A DNA stretch of 64,000 bases from Candidatus Parcubacteria bacterium (GTDB lineage Bacteria > Patescibacteriota > Microgenomatia > Levybacterales > GWA1-39-11). The notes under the pieces were generated by a model. The model was given only the letters and a program-made list of their open reading frames with translations. It had not been told where the DNA came from and did no database searches. Below are positions 6,281 through 47,439 of this stretch, in pieces; the first letter of the stretch is position 1; each line of letters starts with the position of its first letter. Location of the stretch: contig QZIP01000011.1 of assembly GCA_003599595.1 (NCBI GenBank), forward strand, positions 2,638 to 66,637, given 5' to 3'. Both the position numbers and the translations under genes were made by a program.

Positions 6281-6400
6281 TGACAAATGAGGCTCAAATG
6301 CTTAAATGTTATAAAATTTAGATTTTAAATTTTGGATTTCATTTGATATTTGAAATTTGGATTTTGGATTTTTAAGGGTTTGTTGCTTGTTTAGAGATTG
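6281..6400. repeat. AT-rich short-unit repeat cluster (CAAATGnCAAA / TTTGAAATTTGGATTTTGGATTT)
   Basis: Degenerate tandem units of about 10 bp. The same family occurs at 7249-7350, 10694-10870, 15590-15700, 22925-22990, 31770-31830, 50990-51100 and 52780-53085. Confidence 0.55.
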
Positions 6401-7012: not shown

Positions 7013-7354
7013 TATAATTAAATGCTTTTGTGATCAATAAAATTGATCAAACTTAATTACTTATAAATAAGCAATTTACATACCCTTAACATAGTTTTCT
7101 CCAATTATTTGTTCCACAAAAAAAACATATTTTTTATTAAAATTTGAAGCTAAATTTTAAACTGCTATATTTTGATATCATTGTTAATAGTTGACTGTAT
7201 AGGGCTAGTGTTTTACTATATATCCTGGCACTAGATATAGTTTAGAATTTCAAATCTTAGATCGCAAATGTCAAATCTTAAGAAATTTATAATAATTGTC
7301 GCGAAGTGACACCTTAGTTTTGAGATTTGAGCTTTGACATTTGAGATTTAATTT

Positions 7355-7804
7355 ATGTTCTGTCCTTATTGTACAAGCGCTGAAACAGAAGTAGTTGAAA
7401 CAAGAGTGAGTGAAGATGGTGGGAGTATTAGAAGAAGAAGAAATTGTGTTTCTTGTACAAAGCGCTTTACAACCTATGAAAGAATAGAAAACGTTACGTT
7501 GGTAGTAATTAAGAAGGATGGAAAAAGAGAACAATTTAACAGGGAAAAGCTCAAAAATGGAATTTTAAAGTCTTGCGAAAAAACAAGCGTAACACTGGAG
7601 CAGATAAACAATATTTTAGATGAAATAGGAAGAGAATTAAAAAATAAAGATTCTGTTGAAATAGAAAGTAAAAAAATAGGTCAAATAGTTGCAGCAAAGC
7701 TTAAAGAGATTGATAAAGTTGCCTATATTAGATTTGCAAGTGTTTTTGAAAGATTTTTAGACCTTGAAGACTTTGAAAAAGAACTGAAGAGGTTAATAAA
7801 ATAG
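7355..7804 (+). CDS. nrdR: Transcriptional repressor NrdR (zinc ribbon plus ATP-cone)
   Basis: MFCPYCTSAETEVVETR...NCVSCTKRFTTYERIE zinc ribbon followed by an ATP-cone (VIKKDGKREQFNREKL...). It lies immediately upstream of an RNR gene. Confidence 0.9.
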   Translation: MFCPYCTSAETEVVETRVSEDGGSIRRRRNCVSCTKRFTTYERIENVTLVVIKKDGKREQFNREKLKNGILKSCEKTSVTLEQINNILDEIGRELKNKDSVEIESKKIGQIVAAKLKEIDKVAYIRFASVFERFLDLEDFEKELKRLIK

Positions 7805-11529: not shown

Positions 11530-11604
11530 ATTGAGAATAAACGTTGAGGAAATAAATAACGTAAATTAAGTCTTGAATAAATACTAATATACTAGTATAT
11601 TAGT

Positions 11605-11745
11605 AGCACTGTTGGTTTAACCACTGCCCTGTTGAATAACGGGGTGGGAAGGTTGAAGATTTTGGGAATTAGGTGTAAATCCTAAACTGTGCCGCAGCGG
11701 TAATTTCGATCATCTCGAATAAGTCCGAAGACCGACCAACATTGA
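11605..11745 (+). promoter_or_regulatory. Candidate cobalamin (AdoCbl) riboswitch aptamer with non-canonical element order
   Basis: B12-box-like CCACTGCC...GGGTGGGAAGG (11621-11652). Then GGGAAttaGGTGtAAaTCC...CCGCAGCGGTAA (11664-11702), matching the GGGAA-N3-GGTG-N-AA-N-TCC / CCCGC core consensus with exact spacing. Then GAAGACCGACC (11726-11736). An intrinsic terminator follows. Context: directly downstream of nrdJ and pduO. Confidence 0.35.
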
Positions 11746-11783
11746 TCCCGAGCAGGAAACTGAAAATATATTTGAAGTTTAAC

Positions 11784-13967: not shown

Positions 13968-14583
13968 ATGCAAATATATTTGAATAGAAATAGTACATAA
14001 AATGTAGCACTTCGCTAAAGCTTCGCGCTACACACTTCTTACCCATTTTAAAAGCGTGGTAACCTGTTAATTGTGGCCTTCCACGCGTAGCTCTTTACAA
14101 AGTAAAGAGCGAAGTGTGGAGATGGCCGAGAATGACCCGGCGTCCAAAAACAGTACCTATAAAATATCTACAAGCGTAGTCAATCTTTAATTGTCGTTTT
14201 AGGCTTAACTGATTGACAAGGGTGTCCTAAAACCAAGGTTAAAAGATAATATAAGGTAACCAGCCTCATATCCTTTTCTCAACTTTGTTTATGCCCGTAC
14301 TGTCCCGTTGAGAAGGGTCAATACAGACAGAGCTTAGTTTACGTAAGCAAGATTGCGTTCGTAAGCTAGGTCACTAGAACTTGGTCTAGCATTTATGTTT
14401 TGAGACTGTTTTATCCGCCTGTTAAGGCGAGATCTCGCTTTCGCGGACGGCTGTGTCTCAAAGCCGGCTTGCAATTTTAAAAGTGCTATCTCTGTCGATG
14501 CAATGCATCCCCAAGACCAATATTATACCAAATTTTACCCTCAAAAGCAAAAAATTCAAGCTATAATTAGCTCAAACCACTCA

Positions 14584-22874: not shown

Positions 22875-23095
22875 CGGCAAAATGAATTATAGCCTAAATT
22901 AGGCATAGGGGCAATAGAAGTCATTTTATAAAGAAGACACCTTTAAAAATTCAAAAGTCAAAATTCAAAAGTCAAAAGTTAGGTGTCGCAAGCGACTATT
23001 GATAAGCAGTTAAAGAAAACACCCTTTAAAGTTATAAATTATTACTACGTGCTACAAGCCACAAGCTAAAAGCTAGCTTTGAGCTGTGAACTTTT

Positions 23096-25519
23096 TTAGA
23101 TGTTCCCCTTAAATCCTCCACCTTCAGGTCCACCTCTTTCCAATTCCGGTTTTTCTCCAGTATCTGCAAAAACTTCAAAAAGCTTTGATCTTTTTGCAAT
23201 CTCTGCCTCTACCAGATCTTTTGGCCTTCCGCACTTCAGACGTGACAATTCTCTTATAAGTTCTGCTACTCTTGGATTTGCTTGCGAGGTTTCAGAAGAA
23301 ACATCCCGTGTCAAGTCCATAGAAAAGGGTAAAACTGGTTCGCCATTAACTTGTGTTTTGACATACGCATGGTATGCCTCTATGTTTATGAGATCTGCTT
23401 CTGAAAATACGGGTTGAAATTCATGTTGAAGGTAATTTGCATCAGTTACTCCAACCCTGAATGAAACAACTGTTCCCACATTTCCAAAAACCGCATTTTT
23501 AATATCTTCTTCCATCTGTCCAATAAATTGATTTGCAACCGTGAGATTAAGTCTATACTTTCTTGCTTCAGACAGAATTTGAGCAAAATCAGGTGTGGCA
23601 AAATTTTGGAACTCGTCAACATATAAGAAAAAGTCTTTTCTCTTATCTTCAGGAAGATCTTGCCTGGACATTGCTGCCACCAGAATCTTGGGTACTAAAA
23701 TCAATCCCAAGAAGGAAGAATTCTCCTCTCCAATTTTTCCTTTTGCCAAAGAAAAGAGAAGTATTTTCCCTTGGTCCATAACCTCACGCAGGTTAAATGA
23801 GCTTTGGCTCTGCCCAATAATATTTCTCATCATTTTATTTGTTACAAATCTCCCAAACTTAGAAACTATATAATCCATAACTTCAGATTTATGAAAATCA
23901 CTGGTTTGAGCTATCTGATCGGTCCAGTACCTTCTAATAAGGGGATCTTGCACTTTTGGTAAGAGTTCCTGTACAAAAGTTGGATCAGTTAATATTCTCA
24001 TTACTTCAACAAAGGTACTTCCCTCCTCAGACATAACCGTTAGCATAGCATTTCTTACCGCGTGCTCAAACCGTGGTCCTACAATTCCTGTTTGGTGTGG
24101 ATCAAACAATTTCTGCATAAGCCCAAGAATAGAGGCAACCACTAAGTGTTTTTGTTCTTCAGTATGGGCCTCAAGCATATTTAAAGCCATTGGTCTTTCA
24201 GTATCAGATGGGTCAAAAAGGATTACATCCTCAGCTCTTTCAGGAGGAATTAAAGGCAAAAGTTTGTCAATTAAATCATGCGGATCAATAACACATACCC
24301 CATGCCCGTTTTTTATGTCCTGTAAAATCATATCTTTTAAAAATTCTGATTTTCCAACACCGGTTTTTCCAATAATGTACATATGTCTTCTTCTATCTGA
24401 CAATCCTATATGGATAGGCTTACTGATTCCTCTATAAACACTTTTACCAATATAAAGTCCTGAAGTTGGAATATTGGCCGCCGCCGGAGCCGTCCTTGCT
24501 GTAAGCCAGTGGATGTGCGGTGTTTCAACGCTTTTATTAGGAAAATGGAACAACGTTGCAAGTTCTTCAGTGGTTAACAATGATCCCTTACTAAATAAAG
24601 GAATATATCTATATATAAAGTCCGTCATAAACATTCCCTTGAAAAATCTTATCTTCTCTTTTGTAAAAGAGTTATAAGAAGAAAACTGGGTAAATGCGCT
24701 TACCATGTTTGATAGATGGGCATCAGCAGATTCTTTACTGGAAGAAACAACAACAGCTCTCACCCAAGCCTTAAATCCGGGCTTTGTTAACTTCTGGTCA
24801 ATTGCTTCAAGTTCTTTTTGATCTATTGAATATTTTGCTGTTTCAGGATTTGCCTCACGTTTTTTAACCGTTGAAACATAGTTTCTGCCGGTCCCTTTCC
24901 AGTCATCTCCACAAGGTGCAATAAGAATCTGTAAGGCTCCAGCTTCTCCCTGCTGCATTTTTGCCAAAATACTGGTAATGGTAGACAAAGGATCAACAGG
25001 GAGATCTTTATATGTTTTTATTGGAATATAATCAGAAGATTTAAGTTTGAGCCCAGCAAACGCAACTTTGCCTTCTTCATTGAAAATGTTGTATTCTTCA
25101 ACCTCATTTATCTGAGCCCCGGGATAGGATCCGTTAATTTGCTTTTCCACCATATCTTTATATTTATTTGGCACTCCCACATAAAATTTTATATCTCCAG
25201 GTGTTCCTACTATTTCAAAAGAAAGGCTATCTGGCACTTTTAAAAATGAAAAGAACCCGCCTCCGCTTTTAAGAGACATAAGGCTGGTAAACATTTGCTC
25301 GGCTGCATCGATTTTGATTTCATTATCCCGCGGCAAGCTTATCTCAAGAAGGGAAGAGTCTAAAGATTTTATGTGGCGTGCGCGGGCCTTCATCCATAGA
25401 ACAAAAAGATAAAAAAGACCAATGCTTACAACAGCCAAAGCAGAGACAATTAATACTCCAGAAAGTATAACAAAAAGTAAATTTATTAAATTATCAGCAG
25501 AAAACATATTAAGCTGCAT
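23096..25519 (-). CDS. Membrane-anchored VirB4/TraC-family (or VirD4/HerA/FtsK-related) P-loop ATPase
   Basis: N-terminal TM segment (LINLLFVILSGVLIVSALAVVSIGLFYLFVLW), an N-terminal domain of about 300 aa, then a C-terminal ATPase with Walker A YIIGKTGVGKSEF, Walker B LYVDEFQNF and a downstream TVANQ motif. Confidence 0.5.
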   Translation of the reverse strand: MQLNMFSADNLINLLFVILSGVLIVSALAVVSIGLFYLFVLWMKARARHIKSLDSSLLEISLPRDNEIKIDAAEQMFTSLMSLKSGGGFFSFLKVPDSLSFEIVGTPGDIKFYVGVPNKYKDMVEKQINGSYPGAQINEVEEYNIFNEEGKVAFAGLKLKSSDYIPIKTYKDLPVDPLSTITSILAKMQQGEAGALQILIAPCGDDWKGTGRNYVSTVKKREANPETAKYSIDQKELEAIDQKLTKPGFKAWVRAVVVSSSKESADAHLSNMVSAFTQFSSYNSFTKEKIRFFKGMFMTDFIYRYIPLFSKGSLLTTEELATLFHFPNKSVETPHIHWLTARTAPAAANIPTSGLYIGKSVYRGISKPIHIGLSDRRRHMYIIGKTGVGKSEFLKDMILQDIKNGHGVCVIDPHDLIDKLLPLIPPERAEDVILFDPSDTERPMALNMLEAHTEEQKHLVVASILGLMQKLFDPHQTGIVGPRFEHAVRNAMLTVMSEEGSTFVEVMRILTDPTFVQELLPKVQDPLIRRYWTDQIAQTSDFHKSEVMDYIVSKFGRFVTNKMMRNIIGQSQSSFNLREVMDQGKILLFSLAKGKIGEENSSFLGLILVPKILVAAMSRQDLPEDKRKDFFLYVDEFQNFATPDFAQILSEARKYRLNLTVANQFIGQMEEDIKNAVFGNVGTVVSFRVGVTDANYLQHEFQPVFSEADLINIEAYHAYVKTQVNGEPVLPFSMDLTRDVSSETSQANPRVAELIRELSRLKCGRPKDLVEAEIAKRSKLFEVFADTGEKPELERGGPEGGGFKGNI

Positions 25520-30994: not shown

Positions 30995-31357
30995 TTATAA
31001 TGGATTTTGAGTTTCTACTTTATTGTTTTCTTCCATTATTTTCTCTCCTAAGTACAAGCTTCTAAAATCAAGCATTGACTGGGCAAAAATAGCCTCAGCA
31101 TCAGGAATATTTGCTTTTAAATAGGAATTCAACTCTTCCATATTTTTATTTTCTTCAGCCATTTTTGTAAATTCCTCAAGTTTTTCCTGTGGAAGACTTT
31201 CAACAATTTTACTAAGCATATATTTATCAAATCTTTCATAAAGCTCTTGAAGAACCGTTTCTTTCATCAGATCCGTATTGTTCATAAGCCCAGCATCCTC
31301 TATCAAAGACTCAAGAAATAATTTAATATCTACTGGAATTTCTAATTGTTTATCCAT
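30995..31357 (-). CDS. Small acidic hypothetical protein (120 aa)
   Basis: First ORF of the minus-strand operon, separated by 9 nt from the giant gene. An AT-rich promoter-like region lies upstream at 31380-31450. Confidence 0.5.
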   Translation of the reverse strand: MDKQLEIPVDIKLFLESLIEDAGLMNNTDLMKETVLQELYERFDKYMLSKIVESLPQEKLEEFTKMAEENKNMEELNSYLKANIPDAEAIFAQSMLDFRSLYLGEKIMEENNKVETQNPL

Positions 31358-31619
31358 AATTCACCTCCTTAATTTTTAATATATATAAGCATTACATAAG
31401 ATAATGACTATTGTCAATATTAGTAATTTATAAAATTTTCTAATTGATCACAGATTCTCTCTTTAGTATAATCTAGTTTTAAGAAGGAAGAGAGATATTG
31501 CGCTTGCTTACAATACTCACTCTTTCTTTTTTTACAACTCAAAAAGGAGAGAAGCAGAAAATTGCTGTCTGCTTTTACTCTTTTAAAGGTTTTATTCTTG
31601 CACTTTGACAAATCAGGAA

Positions 31620-32925
31620 ATCCAGAAAATATACAGATTTTATTTGTGTATGTCTTCTCACAGTTAGCCTTAAGATAACACGGATGAAACTGATCCGTGA
31701 AATCTTATTTTGTAGGACAGATGTAAGGTCCGCATTACCGTAAAGCATTTAGGCCGCGGGAAGAGAAGGAGTAAATAAATTTGACATTTGAAATTTAAAA
31801 TTTGAAATTGGAAATTTATTTCCTCTCTCCCCGTTGTCTTTTTGCTTACGGTCAATGATGATCTGATTCAGTCCCGCAGGCTGGATGAGGGTGAGAGCAA
31901 AGAGAGCGGAGACGGTGATGCTGATGAGAGGGAGGAAAAATGAAAAGGAAGTCGTTACGCGGCAGTAGACAAAGAAGAGAAAGTAAGCCAACAGTCCAAG
32001 TGAAAGATCCTAACAGGATGGGACATTTGCAAACTGAAGGGCGCACATTTGTTGTCTCTCGGGTGTCTCCAGCCTCCGGGCTGTCCGAACCCTTCAGGGC
32101 ATCACCAGCGTGGGTAATACCGGCTCGTTGATATAGTACCAATAGAGATAAAGGGAGCCCACCCCCTCCCTTGATCCACTCTCGTAAAATCTGGAAGGAG
32201 TTAAGGAGTTGCTCAAAGGTGATATTGTGATAGGACTACAGAGGCTTTTCGAGGGTGTAAAAATAACTCCCGGACAAAGCCAGACTCTATACATGGATCC
32301 ATTCGGAGCATTCATTGATCCTCCTTCAGATCCCACACTTAATCCGCTCAGAGGATTCCAAGTCACCCTTGCTCCTGGTCCCAATCTTCCTCTTGAAGCA
32401 GTAGTGGGCATTCTGCTCGGCCTATGGTCGACGGGGAAGGAGTCAGAAGGTATGCAACCGGTCTGCGTCGATAAAGCAGAGGTAGGAAAGGACGGGCGAG
32501 CTCTTCTTGCGGCTTCAGGATCCACTGGGATCTATTTCATTTATCCCGCGTAATCGTTCAGAAGGAGGATGTGATGACAATCGGCACAAAGATCGGACCA
32601 GGAAGACGAGCTCGGACAGGACCACAATCCCGTCAAGGTCTTCAGATGGAAACAACTGGCGGCCCAGACAAGGTTGACCCCAAAGAATGGCAAAAAGGTT
32701 GCTGGGCTTGCCCGGAGTATCCTTGCAACTTCACCGTGCACAAGTGTCCCCATAGAGGTTGCGTGTTCGGATAGTTCGACAATTTGGAATCTGGATTTCC
32801 ATCATCAAGGCAAGAGGAGCGCTTGGGTTTGTGCGGAGGTCCTATTTGACCTCCAACCTTACTCAAGCGCTTTTCTTTTGGCAAAAAAGTTGCCCCAAAG
32901 CCTAATTTAGGTTAAAATTAAGGGT
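31620..32925. other. GC-rich ORF-free region of about 1.3 kb; candidate large structured RNA or foreign-DNA remnant
   Basis: About 50% GC against about 35% in flanks. Only short overlapping ORFs on both strands. Internal hairpins such as GGAGGTCCTATTTGACCTCC. Lies directly 5' of tRNA-Ser(UGA). Confidence 0.3.
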
Positions 32926-32931
32926 GAAAAT

Positions 32932-33016
32932 GGAGGAATTGAGCAATGGTGGCTCACCAGTCTTGAAAACTGGGGTCCGAAAGGACATGTGGGTTCGAGC
33001 CCCACTTCCTCCGCCA
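32932..33016 (+). tRNA. tRNA-Ser with anticodon UGA
   Basis: GGAGGAATTGAGCAATGGTGGCTCACCAGTCTTGAAAACTGGGGTCCGAAAGGACATGTGGGTTCGAGCCCCACTTCCTCCGCCA. Acceptor GGAGGAA/TTCCTCC, anticodon loop CTTGAAA, long variable arm, and CCA is encoded. Confidence 0.85.
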
Positions 33017-33267
33017 CGTAAAAAATTATTGGTATAATTAATCTATGGATACTCAACAACTTAAACTCGCCTTTTTGTTTTTCCTCAATATTCTTTTTGT
33101 GGGTTTTATCTGGCACTTGGACATCAGTCACAATCTTGACAGGCTAAATATTAACAAAACCCGCGGCATCTTGAAAATCTCTCCGGAAACAGGCTACCGT
33201 ATTTCTCAATATGGATTAATCATCATCTTGTTTTTAATAGATTTGCTAGTAATTTTATTATAGTTTT

Positions 33268-33795
33268 ATGATTATCGTTGTTGGTTCCACCAATCCTGCA
33301 AAATTAAATTCTGTTAGAAAGATCTTTAAAAAATATTTTAGAAATGTGATTGTTAAGGGTGTAAAAGTTGAATCAGGAGTTGCCGAACAACCTTTAAGTG
33401 AAGAAGAAATGTTTGAGGGCGCTCTGTCTCGGGCAAAAAACGCTTTAGAAAAAAATAAAATTGCAGATTTTGGAATTGGAATAGAAGGAGGAGTGCATAG
33501 GTTTGGTTATGGCCTGATGGAAAGAGCCCTAGTGGTTATTGTTGATAGAAAGGGAAATATTGGCATCGGTTCATCTGGTGGAGTGGTCTTGCCTGAAAAG
33601 GTATCCAAAAGAATTGAAAAAGGTGAAAATCTCTCTGTGGTTATAGATGATCTTTTTGGGACAAAAGATATAGGTAAAAGCATTGGCATGTTTGGTTTGT
33701 TTACAAAAGAAGTGGTGACCAGGACAAAGGCCTATGAACACGGTGTTGCCTTTGCTCTCTCAAGATTCCTACACCAAAACTTGTTTGAAAAATAA
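33268..33795 (+). CDS. Inosine/xanthosine triphosphatase (YjjX/DUF84 family)
   Basis: MIIVVGSTNPAKLNSVRKIF...VESGVAEQPLSEEEMFEGALSRAKNA...DFGIGIEGGV resembles YjjX-family NTP phosphatases. Confidence 0.65.
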   Translation: MIIVVGSTNPAKLNSVRKIFKKYFRNVIVKGVKVESGVAEQPLSEEEMFEGALSRAKNALEKNKIADFGIGIEGGVHRFGYGLMERALVVIVDRKGNIGIGSSGGVVLPEKVSKRIEKGENLSVVIDDLFGTKDIGKSIGMFGLFTKEVVTRTKAYEHGVAFALSRFLHQNLFEK

Positions 33796-45228: not shown

Positions 45229-47439
45229 CTACAAATTATATATTTGATAAATTTTAACATCTCCATTTTGATACACAACTTTCCCAATTTGGTCAAATTT
45301 TTTCTCAAACAAATCTTTGTATTTTTCCCGCTCTAAACCACCTATGTAAACATATTTGACGTTATACTTTCTAAGTATTTTTGTTGTTTTATTAGTGTCC
45401 GTATTTTCGTAAATTATTTGTATGTCTGTAATTCTTGGTGCTGGAACATCATAGCTTCCTCTCCACAACCATTCATGTACAGTCCAGCCAAGCACAGTCG
45501 GTATCCCTGTATTTGCTGAGATTCTTGCATAATCCGTATAAGAATCTCCCTGAGCTTCAAGCATAACAGGTTGTCCCTTTATATTTTTATTAATCCATAG
45601 AATCGCTTCATAATCATAAGGCCGTAGTGTTTTTAAATATTTTGTTCCATCAAGTCCTTTATAGTTAATAAATTTATTATAGTAAGAAGGTATGGCAAAA
45701 TAAGGATAAGCAAGAACTATTCCAATAAAAATCATTGATGACAAGAAAAAGGGAAAGCTTTTTGTAGTCCTTGTTATTTTAACCAAAATATAAGCACTTG
45801 AGATTGATAAAAGAATAAAAGATTGATAGACCAACTTAAACATAGTATTTGCCCGGTAATGATTTGGATAAATATCTTTTACATAAACAAACTCCGGTAC
45901 TATTATTAAGAGTGTGGATAAAAAGATCAATAGAATAACAAAATAATCTTGCACTTTCACCTGATATCTTCTTATTTTTAAAATAAATATTGAATATGAA
46001 AAAACAAAAAAGTAAAAAAATCCATAAAGAATAAAAAGTTGCCAAAGAGTAGATTTTTGGCAATGATTTGCTTCAAAAAGAAAAGGTCCAATTTTGCCGA
46101 TTTGAGTTAAAAAATGAGGGGAGCATAATACTCCAATACCGGAAACAAAAGGCTTGAAATTTAAATTAAAAGGTAAAGTAAAAACAAAATATCCAACAAC
46201 CAATACTCCAATATATTTTAAAGAGCTATAAATTTGATATTTGATATTTGATATTTGATATTTGATATTATCGTTCGAATTAGACATTTCTTTTTTAACA
46301 GTAAGCGCAATAATTACCAGCGACGATAATAGCATATAAATGGCTCCATCCCACGCATTTGTCATATACATTACTGCTAACACAAGTGCTAGCAAAGTAA
46401 AAATTAAAAACTCTCGATTATAAAAAAAACTTTTAAGTTTTAAGTTTTGGTTTTGACTTTTGACTTTTGACTTTTGAGTTTGCTTGTTTTCGGAAGATCT
46501 CAAAAAAATCGCAAGCAGTAATGCAATTGTCAACAACACAAACGGAATATCTGAAACGTGTCCGTGTAGATCTGAAACTACAAAAGAATACAGTGGAAAT
46601 TCGTGGATTGTAAAAGGAATAAACCTTGTAGCATTAGGATACCAATAGCTGTTTGGAAAAGAGCTGGCAGAAAAAAATAAAGACCAAAAAGGAATAGGAT
46701 TGTCTGTAGTGTAAGGCTTAAAAAGAGAATAAATGGTATGTAAATTGCCGGCAAATGACACAAATAATCCTGCAAAAATTCCTGTTATTACACTATTTCT
46801 TGATATTTTTCTAAAATCAAAAAGATTTAAAGCAATAGAAAAGGAAGAAGCAAATGTGAAAGAGAAAATAGTAGCAATCATTAAGTTGTAGGAAATATTT
46901 GAGGGTATTTGCGTAAATTTGGTCATAAGAGCTGCTACAAAATGACCATAATAATAGTAATTAATAGAATGGGGAGCAAACCACATATCAGCCGCCGGTA
47001 GATAATCGCTTCTAAGTATTGAATTCATAAATCCGAAATCCATATATTTTTCCAATCCGTAAATATCAGGCCCAAAACCTTTTATAAAAGACCAAAAAAG
47101 AATACCTATAAAAAACAATATCTCAAAAGCGCTATATGTTAAAAATTTTTCTTTAAAATATTTAATTGCAGATCTTTGTTTAATCAAAATTAAAATATTT
47201 ACAAATAATACAATTAATATTGAAAAATAAATTGTTTCAAGAGAAAATTGTGCAATTCTAAGAATTGAAAGCAGAAAAACAATATATGAAACAAAAATTA
47301 GACCAATTGTTTTTGCGAAGATATAGCCTTTGTCTGAAAAATCTTTAAAAATAAGTGAGGTGATCGGTAGAGATGAAGATCCAATTATCCAAAAAGCCAT
47401 CCACCACTGAATTACTAAAATCAACTCTTGTGTAGACAT
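45229..47439 (-). CDS. Large polytopic membrane protein (736 aa), possibly DUF2298/GT-C-like; carries two in-frame repeat inserts
   Basis: More than 12 hydrophobic helices plus a C-terminal soluble domain. In-frame arrays at 46233-46269 (ATTTGAT repeats encoding NIKYQISNIKYQI) and 46430-46483 (TTTTGAC repeats encoding KSKVKSQNQNLKLKS). Confidence 0.4.
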   Translation of the reverse strand: MSTQELILVIQWWMAFWIIGSSSLPITSLIFKDFSDKGYIFAKTIGLIFVSYIVFLLSILRIAQFSLETIYFSILIVLFVNILILIKQRSAIKYFKEKFLTYSAFEILFFIGILFWSFIKGFGPDIYGLEKYMDFGFMNSILRSDYLPAADMWFAPHSINYYYYGHFVAALMTKFTQIPSNISYNLMIATIFSFTFASSFSIALNLFDFRKISRNSVITGIFAGLFVSFAGNLHTIYSLFKPYTTDNPIPFWSLFFSASSFPNSYWYPNATRFIPFTIHEFPLYSFVVSDLHGHVSDIPFVLLTIALLLAIFLRSSENKQTQKSKVKSQNQNLKLKSFFYNREFLIFTLLALVLAVMYMTNAWDGAIYMLLSSLVIIALTVKKEMSNSNDNIKYQISNIKYQIYSSLKYIGVLVVGYFVFTLPFNLNFKPFVSGIGVLCSPHFLTQIGKIGPFLFEANHCQKSTLWQLFILYGFFYFFVFSYSIFILKIRRYQVKVQDYFVILLIFLSTLLIIVPEFVYVKDIYPNHYRANTMFKLVYQSFILLSISSAYILVKITRTTKSFPFFLSSMIFIGIVLAYPYFAIPSYYNKFINYKGLDGTKYLKTLRPYDYEAILWINKNIKGQPVMLEAQGDSYTDYARISANTGIPTVLGWTVHEWLWRGSYDVPAPRITDIQIIYENTDTNKTTKILRKYNVKYVYIGGLEREKYKDLFEKKFDQIGKVVYQNGDVKIYQIYNL

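Follow-up and report, generated by a model that had tools for sequence, protein, structure and literature searches.

What is encoded by a GC-rich stretch of about 1 kb that lies immediately upstream of a tRNA-Ser(UGA) gene in the AT-rich genome of a 'Candidatus Parcubacteria bacterium'? The DNA analysed here, referred to as the window, is a stretch of 64 kb from a metagenome-assembled genome (MAG) of this organism; its proteins match records RJQ27442-RJQ27447 (locus tags C4577_01270-01295), and all positions are those of the window unless another locus is named. The initial annotation had described positions 31620-32925 as GC-rich and free of open reading frames (ORFs), and had offered either a large structured RNA or a decayed fragment of horizontally acquired DNA as the explanation. 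The GC-rich core of this interval contains three small ORFs, here named ORF63, ORF114 and ORF67 after their lengths in amino acids, and is best read as something other than an RNA gene. We prefer to regard it as a compositionally foreign cassette in which three small orphan ORFs lie between hairpins and which ends at a terminator, a reading to which we give about an even chance of being correct. The features of the locus and of its surroundings are listed in Table 1.

The composition of the block was compared with that of the whole window. The previously noted jump from about 35% to about 50% GC was confirmed: positions 31850-32850 have a GC content of 50.8%, compared with 35.4% for the whole window (1-kb windows: mean 35.4%, standard deviation 3.9). 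This is the richest 1-kb stretch of the window, the runner-up elsewhere having 42.8% GC, 8 points lower. The label 'GC-rich' fits the interval only from about 31850 to about 32880, as the left 230 nt (31620-31850) are AT-rich (about 31-38% GC). The GC content at third codon positions (GC3) is 0.42-0.50 in the three ORFs and 0.257 ± 0.043 in host genes (maximum 0.35, n = 47). The GC3 of a 1353-residue neighbour, 0.258, resembles that of the host, so that only the 1-kb block is anomalous. The G-over-C skew is weak in the ORF-bearing core (-0.07 to +0.13, rising to +0.30 at the left edge of the core), compared with about 0.25-0.45 on the sense strand of host genes. All three ORFs of the block are led by a Shine-Dalgarno motif, a feature shared by 3 of 49 host genes. 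In GC content, GC3, skew and Shine-Dalgarno use the block is unlike the genes of its host.

Such a block could have been placed in the contig by the assembly, with about 1 kb from another, higher-GC organism joined into the MAG contig. Abrupt changes in composition occur at about 31850 and 32880; GC3, skew and Shine-Dalgarno use all differ from those of the host, and the block occurs in no other record, its protein clusters all being singletons from one contig. An artefact of this kind would nevertheless require two chimeric joins 1 kb apart within a single contig, and the flanks are host-like and syntenic with relatives, with genes resembling those of a type IV secretion system (T4SS) on the left and tRNA-Ser and a nucleoside triphosphatase (NTPase) gene on the right. 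Chimeras usually form in conserved tRNA; here, the sequence at the right boundary is unique and precedes the tRNA promoter. We consider an assembly artefact to be improbable.

The description of the interval as ORF-free was not upheld. Three consecutive, non-overlapping ORFs in three different frames occupy the plus strand of the core, each following a GGAGG or AAGGAG motif, and the first two had already been annotated in the public record; ORF114 is also present in the IMG collection. The Shine-Dalgarno motif of ORF63 is GGGAGG, 4 nt before the ATG, and that of ORF114 is GGAAGGAG, 8 nt before the TTG. ORF67 is preceded by AAGGAGG, 5 nt before the ATG and 3 nt before the alternative GTG. The TAA stop codon of ORF114 is 8 nt upstream of the Shine-Dalgarno motif of ORF67, and 38 nt separate the stop codon of ORF67 from the start of the terminator hairpin. 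The C-terminus of ORF67 is rich in cysteine and histidine (CWAC...C...HKCPHRGC), and its CxxC...CPHxxC tail suggests, as far as can be judged from the translation, a small metal-binding protein. It was also observed that the Shine-Dalgarno region of ORF67 (TCAGAAGGAGGAT, 32558-32570) is complementary at 12 of 13 positions to a segment within ORF114 (32318-32330). The ribosome-binding site of ORF67 could be sequestered by this segment; the probability of such a match by chance was estimated to be about 0.25.

To test the ORF layout, the core was shuffled with its dinucleotide composition preserved, and the shuffles were searched for a single strand bearing three Shine-Dalgarno-led ORFs of 60 codons or more that do not overlap. 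With ORFs counted from their first start only, none of 3000 shuffles had such a set; with any start accepted, 1 of 5000 did. Among the shuffles that match or exceed the core in the number of Shine-Dalgarno motifs, the frequency was 1 in 337. The coverage by same-strand ORFs, 244 codons, has a p value of 0.018. The arrangement that was found, consecutive ORFs on the same strand with ribosome-binding sites and a terminator, is that of a small-gene operon (p about 2e-4 to 3e-3). ORF114 has GC contents of 0.63, 0.44 and 0.42 at codon positions 1, 2 and 3 (GC1, GC2 and GC3), with a G content of 0.37 at position 1 (G1), and both G1 and the pattern GC1 > GC2 ~ GC3 resemble those of the real genes of the window. 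Compared with ORFs of similar length in shuffles, its codon-position chi-square gives p = 0.006 and its amino-acid composition p = 0.002. ORF114 is the only ORF of the block with an intrinsic coding signature, and the case for ORF63 and ORF67 consists of their Shine-Dalgarno motifs and the operon layout. The amino-acid composition of ORF63, ORF67 and the minus-strand ORFs gave p = 0.46-0.90. Among the ORFs tested other than ORF114, the sole signal was a codon-position p value of 0.046 for a 143-residue ORF antisense to ORF114. The two share their third codon positions, and a real gene commonly gives rise to an antisense ORF of this kind. A homolog search with this 143-residue ORF returned nothing.

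Several observations weigh against the interpretation as a coding cassette. The minus strand is also fairly open, with ORFs of 143, 96 and 70 codons; the first of these is the longest on either strand, in keeping with the earlier remark that both strands are interrupted by stop codons. The antisense 143-residue ORF contains a nested start with a perfect Shine-Dalgarno motif, and the Shine-Dalgarno evidence is therefore not exclusive to the plus strand. The codon-position and composition statistics of ORF63 and ORF67 are like those of random ORFs (p = 0.6-0.9), the power of these statistics being low at such lengths. The protein and DNA collections searched yielded no homolog of any ORF of the block: a search with ORF114 of 1.84 billion representatives gave ORF114 itself as the only real match, the six largest ORFs of the block had no match in Pfam, PHROGs, NCBIfam, PADLOC or the PDB, and nothing was returned by a back-translated scan of a metagenome collection with ORF67, by back-translated scans of a viral collection with all three ORFs or by blastn and tblastn searches of phage and plasmid collections. 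Single-sequence AlphaFold models had low confidence, with a predicted local distance difference test (pLDDT) score of 45.5 for ORF114 and 50.8 for ORF67; these models say nothing for or against coding. Three long repeat proteins that HMMER matched to ORF114 (one with E = 2.7e-10) were rejected as summed weak matches, at about 24 bits each summed over 5-11 tandem repeats. No paralog of the block was found within the window, and no homologs under purifying selection were identified, the collections searched having yielded no homologs.

The same observations bear on a second explanation, that the block is a non-functional, decaying remnant of higher-GC foreign DNA, the ORFs and Shine-Dalgarno motifs of which are unexpressed leftovers from the donor; ORF114 may then be the last intact piece. 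The foreign-like GC and GC3, the distribution of the ORFs over three frames, the restriction of a coding appearance to ORF114, the lack of homologs wherever they were sought and the absence of the block from relatives are all consistent with this. A decayed ordinary gene, as envisaged in the initial annotation, should nevertheless still match some family in translation, and the translated sequences matched no protein family. The clean separation of the ORFs, their well spaced Shine-Dalgarno motifs and starts and the terminator at their end are unlike the debris left by frameshifts, and reading any single stop codon (TGA, TAG or TAA) as sense neither merged the ORFs nor produced a long one. We regard an inert remnant as unlikely, although it is an alternative to be taken seriously.

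The proposal of a large RNA of the GOLLD or ROOL type was examined by covariance-model searches and by folding. All 4227 families of Rfam 15, those of the large ornate RNAs GOLLD, ROOL, OLE, HEARO and raiA included, were searched using cmscan, and only tRNA reached the gathering score in the region of the block. At E values of up to 10 (31300-33100) the other matches were chance-level microRNA and small nucleolar RNA models on an AT-rich hairpin. No credible match to models of group I or group II introns, ribonuclease P (RNase P), transfer-messenger RNA (tmRNA), signal recognition particle RNA or ribosomal RNA was obtained at this threshold, which agrees with the absence of such signatures as judged by eye in the initial annotation. 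A permuted tmRNA model that aligned antisense on the AT-rich hairpin was rejected as a chance match (16.1 bits, compared with a gathering score of 47). Folding z-scores were calculated from the minimum free energy (MFE) relative to dinucleotide shuffles, with the tmRNA of the same window as a positive control; such scores are not an absolute test of RNA structure. The tmRNA has a z-score of -6.1 and three coding controls of equal length have values of -1.6 to +0.8. The interval 31700-32880 has z-scores of -3.8 on the plus strand and -3.3 on the minus strand, which are due entirely to the flanking hairpins. In 200-nt sliding windows, excess stability is seen only near 31700-31900 (-4.8 on both strands) and near 32700-32900 (about -4), whereas the mean across 31800-32700 is -0.06 (plus) and 0.00 (minus), the same as in the flanking genes. 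Folded alone, the core (31860-32800, 940 nt) has z-scores of -0.15 (plus) and +0.58 (minus); three 400-nt sub-windows of the core gave +0.04 to +1.75, and the 200-nt and 400-nt sub-windows overall ranged from -0.8 to +1.75. Significant structure is confined to the AT-rich 31480-31850 and to the terminator. The hairpin GGAGGTCCTATTTGACCTCC, which had been cited as an example of stable structure in the region, exists; it is the tip of the 66-nt terminator-like hairpin and is followed by a T-run.

A large noncoding RNA restricted to this lineage, transcribed from the plus strand and ending at the 32812-32877 terminator, could have been missed by both MFE calculations and Rfam. The block has the highest GC content in an AT-rich genome, is followed by a terminator on the plus strand and has a z-score of -3.8 when the whole of 31700-32880 is considered; furthermore, the perfect 11-nt complement 31616-31626/32790-32800 could close a domain. 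These points are set against the scores of the core and its sub-windows when compared with the tmRNA control, the lack of an Rfam family at E values of up to 10, the coding signature of ORF114 and the Shine-Dalgarno-led layout (p about 2e-4). The GC content of the core (51%) also exceeds the values for the tmRNA (43%) and the cobalamin riboswitch (45%) of the same genome, and neither 11 related loci nor phage and plasmid collections yielded a homologous sequence from which covariation could be assessed. A 1-kb ornate RNA without excess stability, an Rfam match or a homolog is unlikely, and we give this alternative little credence. Equally little is given to a group of more unusual readings: a large RNA confined to this lineage of the candidate phyla radiation (CPR), which would function without a conspicuous fold or through structure that is long-range or assisted by proteins, the ORFs and Shine-Dalgarno motifs being incidental, or, in a milder form, an operon of three micro-proteins newly acquired or newly arisen in a host with mostly leaderless genes.

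For the preferred reading, a foreign cassette of three ORFs, a course of expression can be proposed. Transcription of the cassette would run rightwards and begin inside or ahead of the hairpin-rich region 31444-31857, which may act as a leader or a transcriptional insulator. ORF63, ORF114 and ORF67 would be translated by Shine-Dalgarno-dependent initiation, and the transcript would end at the 32812-32877 hairpin and its T-run; tRNA-Ser(UGA) has its own promoter immediately beyond. The left-hand region lies between the divergent DUF5663 gene and the cassette. It is AT-rich (31475-31860, 34.5% GC) and strongly folded, with z = -5.98 on the plus strand (0 of 100 shuffles fold as well) and -4.2 on the minus strand. 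All four of its hairpins end in a T-rich tail on the plus strand, and no Rfam family matches it. What lies between the divergent units at 31444-31857 may, to judge from the sequence, be a leader, an insulator or a region that binds proteins. The tip of hairpin 4 (31780-31819) consists of AT-rich heptad repeats, TTTGACA/TTTGAAA. As a separate observation, the heptad TTTGAYA/TTTGAAA occurs in 11 copies in the window, compared with 0.34 expected, at 6342-6360, 7257-7275 (minus strand), 7333-7351, 22944-22976 (minus strand), 31780-31819 and 46233-46265. These copies are mostly intergenic or promoter-proximal, one being directly upstream of the tRNA-Ile promoter, and the heptad may be a protein-binding or UP-like element.

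The origin of the block was considered by comparison with 11 related loci, which were fetched using the neighbouring NTPase; the closest share 55-66% sequence identity in this protein. Searches with nhmmer and tblastn found nothing similar to 31358-32931 in any of them. The synteny of the tRNA-Ser pair could be recognized: in L007 (an 835-kb contig) and in L001 the genes for tRNA-Ser(GCU), tRNA-Ser(UGA) and the NTPase are contiguous and the block is absent, and in L007 the tRNA-Ser pair has a T4SS-like operon as its immediate left-hand neighbour. A distance of 6.2 kb separates the two tRNA-Ser genes of the window, which are on opposite strands. The context upstream of the NTPase gene varies widely among the 11 loci, and the GC excursion at the block is +16 points, compared with at most +10.8 in these loci. 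The block is absent from L001 and L007 and has an atypical GC3 here, although relatives with 55-66% identity say little about a recent insertion. L007 also carries, at 7620-7800 of that locus, two extra partial 5' copies of tRNA-Ser(GCU) (GGAGGAGTCGCAT...) upstream of the intact gene, which look like a recombination scar or a duplication of tRNA fragments at the same locus.

The suggestion that horizontally acquired DNA marks an integration junction at the tRNA was supported in part. The foreign-like GC3 and Shine-Dalgarno use and the absence from relatives agree with acquisition, and the DNA of the block would have come from an unsampled higher-GC donor. The signs of integration at the tRNA are missing: Pfam scans of the ORFs between 15.7 and 34.4 kb revealed no integrase or recombinase, a search between 20 and 36 kb for fragments of tRNA-Ser(UGA) or tRNA-Ser(GCU), as would be left at attachment (att) sites, gave nothing longer than 10 nt, and the block is on the 5' side of tRNA-Ser(UGA), not on its 3' side. 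The block could also have arrived as a non-autonomous element resembling a miniature inverted-repeat transposable element (MITE) of 1185 bp, bounded by the perfect 11-nt inverted repeats listed in Table 1 with ATCA outside both. By our estimate about 0.2 such pairs per 1.3 kb are expected by chance, the window contains this one copy only, and the motif shows no enrichment there (five occurrences with at most one mismatch, compared with 2.0 expected). Nor does the repeat delimit the compositional block, its left arm being 230 nt beyond the edge of the GC-rich part. We consider a MITE-like element to be highly improbable.

Table 1. Features of the GC-rich block and its surroundings. Positions are those of the 64-kb window; a dot denotes a feature to which no strand is assigned.
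Feature	Position	Strand	Details
VirD4/TraG-like ATPase gene	23096-25519	-	Further left of the block
1353-aa orphan protein RJQ27442	26924-30985	-	Left of the block
DUF5663 gene	30995-31357	-	Left of the block; divergent from the cassette
Promoter-like site, candidate	31444-31472	+	TTGATC-17-TATAAT, 10/12; consensus scan; DUF5663/cassette divergent region
Hairpin 1	31481-31531	+	Followed by T7; terminator- or attenuator-like; MFE structure
Hairpin 2	31543-31584	+	17-nt arms, then T-rich tail; inverted-repeat scan, MFE
11-nt perfect inverted repeat, left arm	31616-31626	.	GGAAATCCAGA; ATCA on the outer side
Hairpin 3	31671-31707	+	15-nt arms, 87% complementary; terminator-like on both strands
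Hairpin 4	31733-31857	+	About 120 nt; T-run 31838-31844 after the inner stem; 200-nt z = -4.8
GC-rich core	31850-32880	.	50.6% GC; folding z about 0
ORF63	31940-32131	+	63 aa; basic, R/S/P-rich; C4577_01280/RJQ27444, hypothetical protein
ORF114	32209-32553	+	114 aa; TTG start; C4577_01285/RJQ27445, hypothetical protein
ORF67	32571-32774	+	67 aa; start GTG 32571 or ATG 32574; unannotated in GenBank and IMG
11-nt inverted repeat, right arm	32790-32800	.	TCTGGATTTCC; ATCA on the outer side
Terminator-like hairpin	32812-32877	+	66 nt; 30-nt arms, tip GGAGGTC-CTATTT-GACCTCC, then TTTTCTTTT; z = -4.0
tRNA-Ser promoter block	32890-32919	+	TTGCCC-17-TAAAAT; consensus scan
tRNA-Ser(UGA)	32932-33016	+	ARAGORN; Rfam tRNA, 53.9 bits; directly right of the block
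72-aa ORF			Right of tRNA-Ser(UGA)
Inosine/xanthosine triphosphatase (NTPase) gene	33268-33795		Right of tRNA-Ser(UGA)
FtsJ-like methyltransferase gene			Right of tRNA-Ser(UGA)

Some observations concern the surroundings of the block. The tRNA-Ser(UGA) gene adjoins it on the right, as had been stated. To the left, the 1353-residue protein RJQ27442 has no match in Pfam, PHROGs or PADLOC and no relatives in a protein homolog search, a metagenome scan or a viral scan; its 90% cluster also includes a 56-residue ENA fragment encoded on a contig of 692 bp. The DUF5663 protein likewise had no match in a scan of viral sequences. To the right, the final 62 nt of the NTPase gene (33734-33795) also belong to the longest ORF of the FtsJ-like methyltransferase, the true start of which is probably an ATG further downstream. 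The promoter block of tRNA-Ser(UGA) and that of tRNA-Ile(UAU) (22885-22914, minus strand) share a 30-nt degenerate consensus with two matches in the window, compared with none expected; they are identical at 26 of 30 bases, TTGCCCC-N3-GCCTAATTTAGG-N-TA-N-AATT. A TATAAT-like box lies a few bases before the ATG of many host genes, and a strong Shine-Dalgarno motif is present in only three of the 49 presumed host genes. These two features together suggest that leaderless translation is widespread in this CPR genome. The structured RNAs that Rfam identified in the window include the tmRNA (14114-14512, minus strand, 94.5 bits) and the cobalamin riboswitch (11596-11754, plus strand, 60.4 bits).

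The feature is genuine, although of an ordinary kind. Should the three ORFs prove real, orphan micro-proteins would be added to a CPR genome, in a cassette that depends on Shine-Dalgarno motifs within a host whose genes mostly do without them. This would be of interest for gene gain in ultra-small bacteria, although it opens no new question. The locus also advises caution: a GC-rich stretch of an AT-rich genome that looks gene-free flags structured RNAs, but also small or unannotated ORFs and foreign DNA. Simple controls separated RNA from ORFs here, namely shuffle z-scores alongside a tmRNA from the same genome and the statistics of Shine-Dalgarno motifs and ORFs.

Screens of GC-rich intergenic regions (IGRs) in three genomes have met the same situation: 29 of 78, 23 of 38 and 6 of 16 of the long GC-rich 'intergenic' candidates overlapped ORFs, and the other candidates often lacked homologs (Stav et al., 2019; PMC6429828). 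The block resembles the false positives among the 'unknown IGRs' and the 'unnamed' class of that study in being long, GC-rich, ORF-overlapping and homolog-less, a likeness that concerns how the region was flagged and not what it does. It shares with the GOLLD, ROOL, OLE and HEARO RNAs a length of about 1 kb, an elevated GC content in an AT-rich genome, a position beside a tRNA gene and a terminator at its end. Unlike these RNAs, it has no covariance-model match, no excess stability in its core and no homologs, and it carries Shine-Dalgarno-led ORFs, one of them with a coding signature. From ORFan small-gene islets, which are short, horizontally acquired segments of bacterial genomes with an atypical composition, it differs in having no integrase, att duplication or mobility genes, in lying 5' of the tRNA, in its length of only about 1 kb and in the intrinsic coding support for one of its three ORFs. 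With such islets it has in common a sharply bounded deviation in GC and GC3, genes without homologs, absence from relatives and a variable location beside tRNA genes.

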